Part shown: one piece after another, positions 43,752 to 48,507 of the stretch
Numbering within the stretch: the stretch's first letter is position 1
Layout of the letters: every line of letters begins with the position of its first letter
From: Acidobacteriota bacterium
GTDB lineage: Bacteria; Acidobacteriota; UBA890; WLXD01
Assembly (NCBI GenBank): GCA_965205505.1
Contig: CBDBHB010000008.1
Span: forward strand, 192,001-256,000
DNA: 64,000 nucleotides
Direction of reading: 5' to 3'
Program-made: the position numbers and the translations under genes
Notes under the pieces: model-generated
The model's database searches: none
Told to the model about the DNA's origin: nothing
The model's input: only the letters and a program-made list of their open reading frames with translations

Positions 43752-44920
43752 TCCTGACGCTCCTCTCCCATGGTCTCCCAGGCGTGACAGTGCGGACATC
43801 GCGCAAACAGCTCGGCGCTCTTGAACCGGCATTGGAAGCAGACGTACGGATCGAGCAACCGGGCATCGTCGAGCGCCTCATCCAGCAACTCTATGAACTG
43901 CTCGATTCCCTCGCCTTCGAGGCGCAGCAATTCCCATAATTGACGCTGTACCGCGAGCGACCCGGGCCGCTCGCTGAGCGCCGCGCGCAACGCCTCGCGA
44001 GCGCCGGCGAACTCCCGGCGTTCGGTCCGAACACGCGCCAACTCCAGCCACGCTCGCCAGGCGCGAGGATCCCGCTCGAGGATCGCGTTGCAGGATCTCT
44101 CGAGAACAGCCTCATCGCCGAGCACTCGACAGGCGCGCCTCAGGACGGCCATCGCCGCTAGCGCCCACGGCGGCCCGGCATGGATCGCCTGCTCGAGGTG
44201 ATCCCGAGCCGCTTCGGCGCTGCCCTGCTCGAGCAGGCATGTGGCTAGCCCGATTCGAGCCGGTGCATAGTCGGGCCGCAGGTCAAGCGCGGCTTGAAAA
44301 TGCACCGCCGCCGCCTCCGGGTCATCGGCCCCCACCGCCCTGCCCCACTCTGTCTGCAGAGCCGGGCGGAGGTCCGGTTCCGCGCCGCGCGTCATCGTCT
44401 GGATGCGCTGGTGAAAGCGCTGTGCCTCTTCCCAACGTCCACTCTCCTCGGCGATCTGCTGCAGTGCCGTCAGAGCCGCGAGGCTTTCCGGCTCGGCATC
44501 CACGACCTCCTGGAAGGTGCTGGCGGCGCGATCGATCAAGCCGGCCCGCTTGAAGTCCATCGCCAACGAGAACAGCACTTGCGTGTGCTCCCACCGGGAC
44601 TGGTTCGGCCGGTGCAGGAGACTGCGGTGAACATCGATGGCACGCTCAGTTTGCCCGCTTTCGCGCAGCAGGTTGCCAAGTGCGAGGTACGCCTCGAGAG
44701 CATCGGTCTCGTGTCGCACGGCCTGGGAGAGCTCGCGAATCGCCTGGTCCGGCTGGTGCGACACCAAGAAGTTCAGGCCGAGCAGGTAGTGAGGCCGAGC
44801 GCCGGAGCTCTGGGGCGGCACCCGCGGCATCCGGAAACGCGCCCAGAGCTCACCGAGGAGCGCGCCAAGCGACAGCAGGGCCAGCGCAGCGCCAAGCGTC
44901 AGCGGCCAGTCACCCTGCAT
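43748..44920 (-). CDS. lapB: LapB/YciM-like TPR protein with a C-terminal rubredoxin-type CxxC...CxxC
   Basis: TM anchor, YLLGLNFL...QPDQAI, LGNLLR..G..ERAI..H, YVCFQCRF...CPHCHAWET; located among Kdo/LPS genes. Confidence 0.82.
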   Translation of the reverse strand: MQGDWPLTLGAALALLSLGALLGELWARFRMPRVPPQSSGARPHYLLGLNFLVSHQPDQAIRELSQAVRHETDALEAYLALGNLLRESGQTERAIDVHRSLLHRPNQSRWEHTQVLFSLAMDFKRAGLIDRAASTFQEVVDAEPESLAALTALQQIAEESGRWEEAQRFHQRIQTMTRGAEPDLRPALQTEWGRAVGADDPEAAAVHFQAALDLRPDYAPARIGLATCLLEQGSAEAARDHLEQAIHAGPPWALAAMAVLRRACRVLGDEAVLERSCNAILERDPRAWRAWLELARVRTERREFAGAREALRAALSERPGSLAVQRQLWELLRLEGEGIEQFIELLDEALDDARLLDPYVCFQCRFKSAELFARCPHCHAWETMGEERQD

Positions 44921-44953
44921 GCGTTGCTTCTCCTGGACATTGGCGCGGTCTCA

Positions 44954-45503
44954 CTAGTGGCCTGTAACAGATGATCGTTGCATATCGCAGATGGGATTTG
45001 CGGGTGAGATCAAGGCGCGGCGAGGAAGGCGATGCTAGCAGGCCGTGATGGAAGTGTGGTGGGTCTGGCAGGTGGGACTCACGGGCTAGGGCAAGGATCG
45101 ACGACGAGGCGATGTTGGAGCCATCGTCGAGGAGGAGAGACGCCGCCATCGCCCGTGACTCCCACTTGCCCTACGGGTTACGCCGCCAACGGCGCGTCTC
45201 CGGCGTTGCCGCTCCTAGACGATGCGCACGGGCATCGCCGGCGACGCGGCGCCTTGGATCTGCGCCCTTGGCGGCGTAACCAGACCCATCACACTTCCAT
45301 CACGACCTGCTGGGGCATCGTCGACGAGGCGCAACGCCGATATCGCCCGCAACTGCCCGTCTGTCCGCAGGATGGCGGCGAAATCGGCCCGTCTGCGGCG
45401 TTGCTCCTCCTCCAAGATGGGCAAACATCGTCTCGTCGTCGCGCCTGGCATCCGGACCCATTTCGCCACCACGATATGCAACGATCATCTGTTACAGGCC
45501 ACT
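44954..45503. mobile_element. MITE family 1, copy D (inverted near-identical copy of C), interrupted by a nested family 2 MITE; its right CTAG is split by the IS
   Basis: 44954-45034 and 45314-45503 match the reverse complement of 40631-40908; it ends ...TTACAGGCCACT, and the missing AG is at 46906-46907. Confidence 0.92.
45035..45313. mobile_element. MITE family 2, copy E (279 bp), nested in copy D
   Basis: CTAGCAGGCCGTGATGGAAGTGTGGTGGGTCTGG ... CCAGACCCATCACACTTCCATCACGACCTGCTGG. Confidence 0.88.
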
Positions 45504-45516
45504 TCTATGAGAAGGC

Positions 45517-45763
45517 GTAGTTCGGTCAAGGGCAATGTGGTGCCCAGCGAAGAATCGATCTGCACGCCATGCTCCTATTCGCACTCTGGTGGACGAGGAT
45601 TCAGGTCGTCCGGTGCATTCTGGGGTCCGTCCCGATTCGAGGCGCTGCAATCTAGCTGCCGAGCTCGAAGCTCGTAGTGACCTTCGCAGTCGCCCGGACC
45701 GGGCGGTCAGATCGATAACCGTTGGGTCGCGTCGCCCTACCGACCTCCTGGTTGCGGGTTAGT
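45517..45763 (-). ncRNA. Putative bridge/seek RNA of the IS1111-type element (boundaries approximate)
   Basis: Lies downstream of the transposase; contains CUGCGA-[AGGUCACUA]-CGAGCU UCG AGCUCG-[GCAGCUAG]-A-UUGCAG, whose loop arms match the reconstructed target AGGCCA-CT-AGCT. Confidence 0.7.
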
Positions 45764-46806
45764 TCATGCTGCTGAAACCTCTACAGGTGCGCGCAACGGT
45801 TCGTACTCGTCTCCACTCAGCCACAGTCGGTGCAGCACAACGGCGAGCTTACGGGCGACAGCAACTGCTGCCTTTTTGTTGCCATGAGGACCACCGCGTC
45901 CGGCCAGCTTGAGCCCCCAGCGTCTGAGCTCAGTATCGGGCCCGAAGGGGCCCAGGATGTAATGCGCCGAGCCCACCAACAGGCGTCGGAGCATTTTGTC
46001 GCCCGCCTTGGTTATTCGTAGCGCAGGGTCCTTGTCCCCCGACTGCCGTTTCTTCGGTCTCAGTCCCAGGTACGGGCCCACGGCTCTGGAGGTATTGAAC
46101 CGCTCCGGCTCCTCGAGCGTCAGCACATACGCCAGTGCGGTCAGAGCTCCGACCCCGGCCACTTGCTGGAGCTGCTGTGTCTCCGGGTATCGCCCCTGGC
46201 ACAGCTGCACGATCTGACGCTCGTATTGCTGGATGTTGCCCGTCAGCATGGCGATCGTTTCAAGCACCGGCTCGAGCGCTCCCTTGAGCCGCTCCGGTAT
46301 GTGCTCTGGCGCGGTGCGCGCGAACGCCGGCGTCGAGCACCTGGGAATACGACAACCGGCCGACTTGACCGCACCACGCACATGGCTCACCAACTGCGTG
46401 CAGCTCTTTACCAGAGCATCTCGGCTCCGAATCACGGCTAGATCCGCTCGCGCTTGTCTGCCTCGATGCTGCACCGTCTTAAGCAGCTTTGGGTCCATTC
46501 TGCCCACTCGTGCCAGGTGCTCGGCATCCAACCGGTCGGTCCGTGCTCGCCATAGATCAGCTTCAGCCGCCTCGGGTTAGCCACCAGCACCTCATGACCC
46601 AGTTGCTTCAACTGCTCACTCATCCACGGCGAGCGCGTTCCAACCTCCAGCACTACTCGAGCGGGCTCCTCGCACCCGAACCGCCTCGCCAGCCCCTCCG
46701 GGCTCGTCCTCACCCGCCCTTCCTCCATCACCCTGCCCTTACTGTCGAGCACGCACATACGGCTGTACCGGTCGCTTACGTCCAGTCCAATCGTTACACT
46801 TGTCAT
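45764..46806 (-). pseudogene. IS110-family transposase/recombinase, frameshifted at ~46541-46545
   Basis: GLDVS..VLEVG..VANP in one frame, TDRLDA..LAR and GVG...YLGL.P...QSG...ITKAG..LR.LL...A.VAVARKLA in another; total length is 3n+2. Confidence 0.88.
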
Positions 46807-46807
46807 C

Positions 46808-46891
46808 GGCCAACCTCCTTGGGCTTCGAGCCCGTTACGTTTGAAGAAACGTTTGCAGAGCCGTCAGGCTACTGCGTTCAGGAGGTTGGCC
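46808..46891 (-). promoter_or_regulatory. 12-bp inverted repeat able to sequester the transposase RBS
   Basis: GGCCAACCTCCT (46808-46819) / AGGAGGTTGGCC (46880-46891); the minus strand of the first arm contains the AGGAGG 7 nt before the ATG. Confidence 0.6.
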
Positions 46892-46908
46892 TTCTCATCT
46901 CATCTAGC

Positions 46909-47508
46909 TCACGGCGCATCCGCATCGGCGCCGGGCGCCGCCGACTGGCGGCGAAGATAGTCTTGCAGCACGCAGCTCCAGAGATCGCGAGCGGTCACGA
47001 CGTCGTCCACCACCTCGCGCAAGGCGCCCCGTCCTCCAGCCGACGCGGTAACCCAATCAGCCACCTCAAGAATCCGAGGGTGTGCGTCGGCCACCGCAAT
47101 ACCAACACCGACGTGTCGCATCACGGCCAGATCAACCAGGTCATCCCCCAGGAAGGCTACCTGCGATGCTTCAAGCCCGAGCTGCCCCTGCATCTCCAGA
47201 CAGGCTCCGACCTTGTCGAAAGCTCCCTGCCGGAGCTCGAGCACGGGCAACTCCGAGAAACGCCGAGCGACAGCGGCCGATTCGCGTGCCGTGACCACCG
47301 CGATATGCAGATCGATAACCGTAGCGATATAGAAGGCGCTGCCATCGCGAACATGGAACGTCTTGGCTTCGCAGCCCGCTCCGGCATAGACGATCGAGCC
47401 GTCGGTCAACACGCCATCGACGTCGGTAATCAGCAAACGGAGCTCACGCAAGCGATCCTCGTACGCTTGCCTGGAGAGTCTAGTGTCCTGTAACAGACGT
47501 TCCACCAC
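46909..47508 (-). CDS. kdsC: Kdo 8-phosphate phosphatase (alternative TTG start at 47451)
   Basis: DVDGVLTDG, FHVRDG, FLGDDLVDL, GGRGALRE. Confidence 0.92.
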   Translation of the reverse strand: MVERLLQDTRLSRQAYEDRLRELRLLITDVDGVLTDGSIVYAGAGCEAKTFHVRDGSAFYIATVIDLHIAVVTARESAAVARRFSELPVLELRQGAFDKVGACLEMQGQLGLEASQVAFLGDDLVDLAVMRHVGVGIAVADAHPRILEVADWVTASAGGRGALREVVDDVVTARDLWSCVLQDYLRRQSAAPGADADAP

Positions 47509-47518
47509 GGCTTGCTAG
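47480..47518. repeat. 39-bp chimeric remnant: family 1 left end joined to family 2 right end, at the kdsD stop
   Basis: CTAGTGTCCTGTAACAGA-CG-TTCCACCACGGCTTGCTAG. Confidence 0.8.
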
Positions 47519-48507
47519 ACCATCTGTGTACGCCACAGGTCGTGCAAGTGCACGACACCAACGGCGCGTCGATCGCCACCGCCGACGACCAGCACGGTAA
47601 TCCTGCTCTCCTCCAACAGCCGCAACGCCTCCGGAGCCAGGGCATCGGCAGCAATCAGAACCGGATTTGGCGTCATGCATTCGCGCGCCAAGCTGTCGAT
47701 GTCGATGCCGCTCTGAACGATACGCCGAACGTCACCATCGGTGATGATGCCGGCGACCCTACCGTCGGCCGACTCCACCAGCGTCATGCCGAGACCCTTG
47801 GCGGTCATTTCCTCGATCGCCGCGGCGAGTGAAGCTGTCTCGTCGACGCGCGGCACCTGATCGCCCGTGTGCATTACCGTGCGCACGCGCAGCAAACGAC
47901 GACCCAGCGATCCCTTCGGATGGAAACGGGCGAACTCCTCAACCCCGAAGCCCCGCTCCACGAGCAGCGCCATCGCCAAAGCATCGCCAAGCGCCAGAGC
48001 TGCCGTGGTCGACGCGGTCGGGGCGAGTCCCAGCGGGCACGCCTCGGCATCGACGTCGATGCGCAGCACCACGTCTGCCTCGCGAGCGATGGTCGAGCCG
48101 GAATCGCCGACGATGGCGATCAGCCGGACGTTCAGGCGCCGAATCGCAGGCAGCAGCGCGACGATCTCGCCGGTATCGCCACTGTGGCTCAGGGCGATGA
48201 ACACATCACCGTCGACGAGCATACCCAGATCACCGTGGCCGGCTTCCGCAGGGTGGAGAAAAAACGCCGGGCTGCCAGTCGATGCCAGCGTAGCTGCGAG
48301 CTTTCTGGCGATGATTCCCGACTTGCCCATGCCCGAGCACACGAGGCGCTTATCGCATGCAAGCAGCAGATCCAACGCTCGACCCAGCGCCTCCTCGTCG
48401 AGCCCGTCCGCGAGCTTCTCCAACGCGCGAGCCTCGGTCCGCAGTACCTGCCGCGCCATCTCCAACCCGGCGCGGCGGGCAGTCGTGCCGGTACGTTCTG
48501 CGGTCAT
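47515..48507 (-). CDS. kdsD: Arabinose-5-phosphate isomerase (KpsF/GutQ)
   Basis: GMGKSG, HPAEAGHGDLG, EACPLGLAPTASTT, FHPKG.LG, CBS pair. Confidence 0.95.
   Translation of the reverse strand: MTAERTGTTARRAGLEMARQVLRTEARALEKLADGLDEEALGRALDLLLACDKRLVCSGMGKSGIIARKLAATLASTGSPAFFLHPAEAGHGDLGMLVDGDVFIALSHSGDTGEIVALLPAIRRLNVRLIAIVGDSGSTIAREADVVLRIDVDAEACPLGLAPTASTTAALALGDALAMALLVERGFGVEEFARFHPKGSLGRRLLRVRTVMHTGDQVPRVDETASLAAAIEEMTAKGLGMTLVESADGRVAGIITDGDVRRIVQSGIDIDSLARECMTPNPVLIAADALAPEALRLLEESRITVLVVGGGDRRAVGVVHLHDLWRTQMV

Follow-up and report, generated by a model that had tools for sequence, protein, structure and literature searches.

The 64,000-nt stretch of DNA analyzed here (the window; positions 192,001 to 256,000 of contig CBDBHB010000008.1 from an Acidobacteriota bacterium) carries an IS1111-type insertion sequence (IS) at the right tip of a resident MITE (a miniature transposable element with inverted repeats). 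We propose, with a probability of roughly 0.88, that the two arms of an RNA encoded within the IS, a seekRNA or bridge RNA, set its insertion at a site composed of the MITE tip and the CTAG duplication that flanks the MITE. The genome sequences show the anatomy of the IS, the census of its sites, the covariation between guides and flanks, and which of the two elements is the older. Unless a contig is named, coordinates are positions in the window; the genes of the IS lie on the minus strand, and the genome of the window (G000) comprises 5.98 Mb in 9 contigs.

Occupied and empty target sites in the genome

On the plus strand, the IS is found in the arrangement ...TTACAGGCCA-CT (45502-3)-[IS, 45504-46903]-CT (46904-5)-AG (46906-7)-CTCAC. 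An initial annotation of this stretch had claimed that removing the IS and one CT restores an intact MITE end, and this is indeed the case: the product, GGCCA-CT-AG-CTCAC, is of the type seen at 109 unoccupied CTAGTGGCCT sites of the genome. Its expectation that other copies would sit at the same site was borne out as well. There are 27 full-length copies of the IS in G000, plus fragments, with identities of 98-100%. Read on the transposase strand, the right flank of the full copies is TGGCCT in 26 and TGACCT in one, and the sequence to the left of CTAG is unrelated between copies. When partial copies are included, all 31 right junctions (31/31) conform, with 30 TGGCCT, one TGACCT, no other tip, and a single orientation.

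Unoccupied sites have the form nnnCTAG|TGGCCTGTAACAG... and include 109 with the tip TGGCCT, 87 with TGTCCT, 6 with TGCCCT, and 2 with TGACCT. Variants of the target include CTAGTGGCCT, CTAGTGACCT, CTAGTGTCCT, and CTAGTGCCCT. Occupancy differs significantly between the two common tips: none of the 87 CTAGTGTCCT sites (CTAG followed by TGTCCT) is occupied, versus 30 of the 139 sites at which CTAG is followed by TGGCCT (Fisher's test, P = 2e-7). The TGACCT site occurs three times in the genome, twice empty and once occupied. The CTAGTGGCCT sites, 109 empty and 30 occupied, compare with ~13 expected from base composition, and most of them are MITE tips.

A candidate guide RNA whose arms match the site

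On the transposase strand, positions 45645-45689 read CTGCGA AGGTCACTA CGAGCT-TCG-AGCTCG GCAGCTAG A TTGCAG, exactly as the initial annotation described them, and RNAfold returns the stem, the hairpin, and the arms that it had drawn. In a 101-nt context, the predicted fold (-43.3 kcal/mol, z = -2.15) shows the outer stem, the central hairpin, and the two arms; the arms are largely single-stranded, with two to three weak pairs placed between them in the minimum free energy fold. We assign the putative target-binding loop domain of a seekRNA or bridge RNA to positions 45631 to 45703 of the minus strand, over which the RNAfold prediction extends the stem around the segment. The loop segment is invariant in 27/27 IS copies, as the reading in the initial annotation requires.

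Arm 1 (AGGUCACUA; 45675 to 45683, minus strand) is complementary to the top-strand sequence TAG-TGGCCT, that is, to a T, the core AG, and 6 nt of the MITE tip. As had been annotated, it matches at 8/9 positions, and the remaining one is an rU:dG at the position that varies among MITE tips. The tolerance attributed to this position holds in part: the guide U pairs with G or A but not with T, and the common T variant, TGTCCT, is unoccupied in G000 (0/87). The central hairpin, CGAGCU-UCG-AGCUCG (45660 to 45674, minus strand), separates arm 1 from arm 2 (GCAGCUAG; 45652 to 45659, minus strand), whose sense is that of the left flank and core (..AGCT-AG). The complement of the top strand is placed 5′ of the complement of the bottom strand, in agreement with IS1111-type seekRNAs (PMC11187229). 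The match of AGCUAG in arm 2, put forward in the initial annotation, stands for the flank of the copy in the window, but CUAG alone is general. The additional AG precedes CTAG at 6 of the 28 distinct occupied sites versus 0 of the 109 empty TGGCCT sites (P = 4.6e-5). There are no empty AGCTAGTGGCCT sites and nine empty AGCTAGTG[A/C/T]CCT sites, and the best target matches appear saturated. The census predicts that TGACCT would be used at least as much as TGGCCT and both far more than TGTCCT, and that AG-CTAG would be preferred to other left flanks.

Guides and targets covary across relatives

Searches, first of 41 relatives and later of 401 genomes from the phylum, gave homologues with 43-68% identity; a single-protein search gave one relative only (L031), and the relatives used here come from the genome searches. 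Among the 28 relative loci (L031, L033, and L062-L087), the automated end-finder failed on nine (L063, L065, L067, L070, L071, L073, L075, L081, and L083). L078 was dropped after inspection, its arm 1 being unlike the apparent right flank and its target-loop stem diverging, and L080, L085, L082, L086, and L084 were collapsed as extra copies of L062, L072, and L074. The covariation set comprises 14 distinct elements, this IS included.

Nearly all homologues share the layout AGATGGG-ATGAGAAGGCC ... GGCCTTCTCAT-(A/G)GA-AG and the conserved frame GACUGCG-[arm 1]-[hairpin]-[arm 2]-AGAU(G/U)GCAGC. The same loop architecture is folded by 14/14 elements with central hairpins that are unlike in sequence and length, and compensatory pairs are seen in the outer stem, where C:G is replaced by U:A in 5 elements, and G:C by A:U in 2 and by C:G in 3. 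The covariation of guide and target anticipated by the initial annotation is found for both arms. The longest Watson-Crick run of arm 1 against the flank has a mean of 7.29 in cognate and 3.25 in non-cognate comparisons, and the suffix identity of arm 2 to the left flank has a mean of 3.5 in cognate and 0.29 in non-cognate comparisons. In each case 0/20,000 permutations reached the observed value (n = 14), a count that overstates independence because the 14 elements are kin and two pairs share targets; despite this kinship, the pattern is plain in the matrix.

The nearest relative (in genome G011, 62-68% amino acid identity) has the arms CGGACUCUA and CCGAGUAG and the site GGAGAGT-AG-[IS]-AG-AGTCCG, and differs from this IS by three compensatory changes in each arm. 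Several of the loci on which the end-finder failed could be compared by eye. Arm 1 matches at 8/8 positions in L073 and over 8 nt in L081, where arm 2 matches over 5; L067 has an arm 2 match of 5 and an arm 1 match of 6+3 with a bulge; and arm 2 matches over 5 in L071, 6 in L083, and 5/6 in L070. L063 and L075 are without flanks, and L065 was not used. The targets of the relatives are short motifs of 10-12 nt with no clear sign of MITE ends. Separately, the transposase gene of the closest relative is split by an insert of ~2.7 kb between residues ~150 and 146, and is represented by L033 and L037 (G011:C1:3908161-3911885).

The target is created by an older MITE family

The MITE copy in the window extends from 44958 to 45501 and is 544 bp long, versus a family unit of 270 bp, since a second MITE is nested inside it. 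It has perfect 32-nt terminal inverted repeats at 44956-44987 and 45472-45503. The left copy of its CTAG target-site duplication lies at 44954 to 44957, and its right tip, ...CTGTTACAGGCCA, is the right half of the IS target. Members of the family have terminal inverted repeats of ~30 nt, are most often 270 bp long (a spacing of 250-299 bp is found for 28 of 70 adjacent end pairs), fall into two main subfamilies with the tips TGGCCT and TGTCCT, and give 71 matches in G000. The 270-bp unit is also present in 4/4 genomes of the same genus, with 49-64 matches in the three near-complete ones, and, at lower identity, in other genera of the family and order. In three congeners, the bare 10-mer CTAGTGGCCT is counted 65, 127, and 135 times. 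None of the four same-genus genomes searched gave a match to the IS.

At the orthologous locus of one congener (G004; flank 93% identical), the sequence ...tctcaCCAGctcacgg... has a single CCAG and neither MITE nor IS. A second congener (G003) has CCGG at the orthologous position, and a third (G001) has CCGG right before the same flank, its upstream sequence being different. Because the MITE has CTAG on both sides and the congeners have CCAG or CCGG just once where the orthologous site is empty, CTAG represents the target-site duplication of the MITE; the duplication is 2-4 bp long, its exact length not being resolvable because CTAG is palindromic. The family is thus short, non-coding, and multicopy, with terminal inverted repeats, a duplication, and a presence/absence polymorphism. 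These genome comparisons show a real family whose traces mark it as mobile and as older than the IS, so that the initial annotation's identification of the target as a MITE end is upheld.

Because CTAG is the duplication of the MITE, the IS target straddles the junction between the MITE and its host: CT and the host flank form its left half, and AG with 6 nt of MITE tip its right half. The claim that the guide is aimed at a MITE end is therefore correct for the right half, the left half being outside the MITE. Nineteen of the 31 occupied flanks begin a repeat of at least five copies and 12 do not. Most of the remaining flanks keep 13-20 nt of the MITE tip, and ~5 share 6 nt only; recognition therefore spans ~10-12 nt and not the whole MITE. 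The spacing of the ends revealed no autonomous partner of the MITE: a single end pair lies at a distance of 1-5 kb (C2:8069-10068), and its open reading frames (ORFs) were not compared with protein families.

Ten pairs of MITE tips lie <50 bp apart (C9:1656969, C9:496030, and C8:1258113 among them; e.g., CTAGTGGCCTGTTACAGGCCACTAG) and resemble the mini-palindromes known as repetitive extragenic palindromic (REP) sequences. They may be internally deleted MITEs or relics of excision. The IS under-uses such CA-CTAG sites (1/28 versus 41/109, P = 2e-4). The repeat nested in the window MITE (45037 to 45311) belongs to a second, unrelated MITE-like family. It has a 32-nt inverted repeat that is 94% complementary and starts with AGCAGGCCGTGATGGAAGTGTGG, steps in BLAST coverage at 45035 and 45311, CTAG on its left and CTGG on its right, and multicopy ends (BLAST coverage of 160+). 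The tetranucleotide CTAG is strongly under-represented in G000 (11,706 observed versus ~39,400 expected from base composition); nonetheless, both MITE families insert at it, and it makes up half of the target of the IS.

Anatomy of the IS and its transposase

The IS occupies positions 45504 to 46905 of the minus strand and is 1402 bp long in the window and 1406 bp in intact copies, one core copy at the left end included. The range given in the initial annotation, 45502-46907, does hold the IS, but its last two nucleotides (AG, 46906-7) are target: on the minus strand, 46906 to 46907 is a target-derived CT, left over from the CTAG duplication on the right of the MITE. Under the published 7/3 convention, the IS itself runs from 45504 to 46905.

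The gene for the IS110-family DEDD transposase spans 45764 to 46806 (minus strand) and encodes 348 amino acids when intact, as it is in 10 of the 27 copies, among them the one at G000:C8:5461-6870. In the window copy it is frameshifted. Alignment of the copies shows that 4 bp (ACAA) are missing at ~46542, a deletion common to 12/27, and the gene is read as overlapping ORFs of 122 and 255 amino acids that match the PF01548 and PF02371 halves of IS110-family transposases. The window copy is transposase-dead and could be mobile only with transposase supplied by other copies. A recombination assay would not need the repaired transposase that had been suggested, since 10 intact copies exist. The intact protein matches PF01548 (E = 1.4e-17), PF02371 (E = 5.4e-17), and NCBIfam NF033542, "IS110 family RNA-guided transposase" (202.8 bits, cut-off 140). 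In phmmer searches it is a distant homologue of ISCro4 (PDB 9t56, E = 7.5e-9) and IS621 (PDB 8wt6, E = 9e-8). It contains GLRPKKRQSG, an instance of the IS1111 motif GL-P----S/TG.

On the transposase strand, the layout is [flank]CT-AG ATGAG ATGAGAAGGCC ... GGCCTTCTCAT AGA-AG-TGGCCT[flank]. The left terminal extension, AGATGAG (46899 to 46905, minus strand), is 7 nt long and starts with the core AG, and the right one, AGA (45504 to 45506, minus strand), is 3 nt long and is AGA or GGA in relatives. Inside them, read from the sequence, lie 11-bp subterminal inverted repeats, ATGAGAAGGCC on the left (46888 to 46898, minus strand) and, on the right (45507 to 45517, minus strand), CGCCTTCTCAT in the window copy and GGCCTTCTCAT in 24/27 copies; 10/11 positions are matched in the window copy. 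AG flanks all IS copies on both sides and is all that the two junctions have in common. AG is therefore the core dinucleotide, and its copy at the right junction is at 45502 to 45503 (minus strand). The non-coding DNA of the IS amounts to 261 nt downstream of the transposase gene versus ~99 nt upstream. It includes a -35-like hexamer, TTGACC (45524 to 45529, minus strand), and TTGAC is conserved in the non-coding region of all listed relatives, 17-20 nt from the right end. Its position suggests one half of a circle-junction promoter, by analogy with the Pjunc promoters already described (PMC12288879). The domains, subterminal repeats, 7/3 extensions, downstream non-coding region, and orientation-specific insertion are those of the IS110 family and its IS1111 group, in which subterminal repeats measure ~11-13 bp, and the element is an IS1111-type IS of an autonomous family. 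No other IS110-family element was found in G000 beyond this 27-copy IS.

Defective copies form lineages at separate loci: 12/27 have the 4-bp deletion, 5 have lost 1 bp at 46401, and 3 have gained 1 bp near 46656. This pattern suggests that transposase-dead copies in which RNA and ends are retained are mobilized in trans, or else that gene conversion has occurred. Among four copies on one contig (G000:C6, at 423088, 512430, 189955, and 11749), two have an identical 30-nt left flank and unlike right flanks, and the other two have a common right flank, TGGCCTAACGCC..., and unlike left flanks; inversion or rearrangement mediated by the IS would be expected to leave such a pattern, as would duplicated contigs. 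In one sequencing run (X1), a DNA contig joins 45503, at the MITE tip, to 46808, a point just upstream of the start codon of the transposase, so that 1304 nt are skipped; the joint is seen in this one contig, with a side of only 21 nt.

A second loop resembles the donor end

A second loop has its 3′ arm, GTGCGAATAGGAGC, at 45571 to 45584 (minus strand), where the RNA GTGCGAAUAGGAGC contains AUAGGAG. The corresponding ATAGGAG resembles the right end of the IS plus the core (ATAGA|AG) with one mismatch. The motif was found in 14 loci and is identical to the right end plus core in 13 of them, tracking CATAGA versus CATGGA in the end and AG versus AA in the core. These observations fit a donor-binding loop as in bridge RNAs (PMC11208160), a reading that is half supported.

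Proposed mechanism and competing explanations

We propose that the downstream non-coding region encodes a seekRNA or bridge RNA in which arm 1 would pair with the top strand at T-AG-TGGCCT and arm 2 with the bottom strand opposite (AG)CT-AG. Together the arms would direct insertion, in a single orientation, to the central AG of CTAG|TGGCCT, and the second loop, matching the right end of the IS and the core, would probably hold the donor. By analogy with ISEc11 and IS621, the RNA is presumably made, binds the transposase, and drives recombination. Because the site consists of the CTAG duplication and the first 6 nt of the terminal repeat, a 10-12-nt site is made at each insertion of the 270-bp MITE, and the older MITE family therefore supplies >100 landing sites.

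Several observations weigh against this proposal. Arm 1 has the rU:dG at 30/31 sites, and at most sites arm 2 pairs with CUAG only (4 nt), which is weaker than in relatives. Among the relatives, arm 1 of L078 does not match the apparent flank (arm 2 matches at 7/7), and L064 and L081 are without complementarity to the core: their arm 1, with an 8-nt flank match, ends in AC and not CU, and core pairing by arm 1 is therefore not universal in the clade. The 3′ arm of the second loop has one mismatch to the right end of its own IS, and its 5′ arm has no consistent complement to the left end and is not convincingly matched. A scan of window positions 44500-48000 against Rfam 15 (E <= 1) matched no family, and Rfam may or may not hold a model of IS1111-type RNAs, so the label of the RNA family rests on architecture. 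That the RNA is produced is presumed from related systems. In one study, two metatranscriptome runs yielded contigs over the non-coding region and most of the transposase gene, the intact 4-bp form being present in one of them, but such contigs may derive from DNA and show neither ends nor strand, missing cover is uninformative, and they are no evidence of transcription. Finally, a 1281-nt RNA-library contig from another sample (run X16; window 45447-46723) has the IS next to a TGTCCT tip (45499 C>A), and the variable position is therefore not absolutely discriminated. This contig carries the IS in its intact 4-bp form; no TGTCCT tip is occupied in G000.

The link to the MITE could also be fortuitous, the mechanism being the same: a recent horizontal transfer would have brought in the IS with its guide set for a different site, and the IS, rather than being programmed for the MITE, would cross-react through wobble pairing with a motif that the MITE of this genus has made abundant. 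The guide is perfect only for TGACCT, present three times in the genome, and two observations point to recent arrival: the IS was found in none of the four congeners, and its copies are 98-100% identical. In addition, 12 of the 31 occupied flanks are not repeats of at least five copies, ~5 have no recognizable MITE tip beyond 6 nt, and the targets of relatives are not evidently MITE ends. However, wobble pairs are also found in relatives L031 and L076, so wobble need not mean foreign origin, and the excess of CTAGTGGCCT sites over expectation, most of them MITE tips, means that in practice the MITE supplies the sites, whatever the history. We consider a fortuitous link rather unlikely. It is very improbable that the transposase protein reads CTAGTGGCCT directly and that the complementarity of the loop is coincidental: both arms change with the flanks over 14 relatives that keep conserved transposases and ends, occupancy follows base-pairing at the variable position (G and A accepted, T not), and RNA guidance has been proven experimentally for the family (PMC11187229, PMC11208160). 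What speaks for direct reading is the 4-nt pairing of arm 2 at most sites. Less probable still, to the point of being hardly credible, is that the IS and the MITE form one composite element or that the "MITE end" is part of a longer IS. Next to the right end of the IS there is always the same 6-nt piece of MITE tip, and usually one of 13-30 nt, but the right flanks diverge after 6-13 nt in 12/31 copies, 109 MITE-type sites are unoccupied, and the MITE persists in the three near-complete congeners without the IS; a composite is contradicted by the diverging flanks and by these congeners.

Guidance of the IS to the MITE tip and its duplication by the two arms remains our preferred explanation. 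An extension of it, which we regard as tentative, is that the IS is an obligate hyperparasite of the MITE and that transposase-dead copies with guide RNA and ends are RNA-carrying non-autonomous riders, spreading in trans, on an element that is itself non-autonomous. On this reading, there is no attachment site before the MITE inserts, and each MITE transposition would therefore make up to two new sites; the notion of riders is raised because 12/27 copies at different loci share the same 4-bp deletion. If this is true, insertion of the IS splits the terminal repeat of the MITE from its flank and may freeze that MITE.

Significance and comparison with known systems

Within one genome, ~230 near-identical candidate sites that differ at single positions form a natural data set on the specificity of an RNA-guided recombinase, in which occupancy follows base-pairing (rU:dG tolerated, rU:dT not) and the best 12-nt matches appear saturated. 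Programmable recombinases could be sought among the relatives, a family of at least 14 in which nature has reprogrammed the guides on conserved scaffolds. The known working of such systems is unchanged by our finding. The principle is not new, as both seekRNAs or bridge RNAs and an IS1111 element in a MITE have been published, and what we describe is a natural example of a known mechanism and lifestyle.

That IS110 and IS1111 elements find their targets by RNA guidance was reported in 2024 (PMC11187229, PMC11208160). Siddiquee et al. 2024 (PMC11187229) give as features of IS1111 elements subterminal inverted repeats, 7/3 extensions, a transposase of 330-350 amino acids, and an RNA encoded downstream of tnp, in which the top-strand match is 5′ of the bottom-strand match. 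Similar to ISEc11, ISKpn4, ISPst6, and ISPa11 (PMC11187229), the IS described here has the RNA downstream of tnp, 7/3 extensions, the motif GL-P----SG, two short target matches on one folded RNA, and natural retargeting between relatives; unlike them, it has a different target, and its likeness is one of architecture, known from sequence alone. With IS621 (Durrant et al. 2024, PMC11208160; PDB 8wt6), it shares a homologous DEDD recombinase, the two-loop logic, and a 2-nt core common to target and donor. However, IS621 belongs to the IS110 group, and its RNA is upstream, its subterminal repeats are short, and its arm order is reversed, whereas the donor loop of the IS described here is half supported.

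Multicopy repeats are familiar targets of such elements: REP sequences are targeted by ISPa11, IS621, and ISPpu9 (PMC12288879). The sites targeted by ISKpn4 and ISPst6 are attC sites. IS4321 and IS5075 reportedly insert into the inverted repeats that terminate Tn21-family transposons. They would thus be, like the IS described here, IS1111-family elements aimed at the terminal repeat of another transposon, but their targets are said to be large autonomous plasmid transposons and not a chromosomal MITE. In a limited full-text search of the literature on IS110 and IS1111 elements and MITEs, which leaves absence unproven, no account came up of a target that consists of a MITE tip and its duplication.

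ISPpu9 and ISPpu10 of Pseudomonas putida (PMC12288879) are similar to this IS in having a multicopy repeat as target and AG on both sides; a circle-junction promoter and trans-mobilizable derivatives are also described for them. Their target is a REP and not a MITE end, and ISPpu9 has the extra small RNAs Asr9 and Ssr9. A parallel in lifestyle is IS1111 of Coxiella burnetii RSA 493, 20 of whose 21 copies lie in QMITE2 (PMC5896051). As here, the copies reside in a MITE family that predates the IS, QMITE2 being conserved between strains. In contrast, the target there is a GTAG REP inside the MITE, whereas here it is the MITE tip plus its duplication, a site that exists only after the MITE has inserted. 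The IS in the window is thus another case of a mobile element using a mobile element as a safe harbor, with the twist that its site spans the junction between the MITE and the host.

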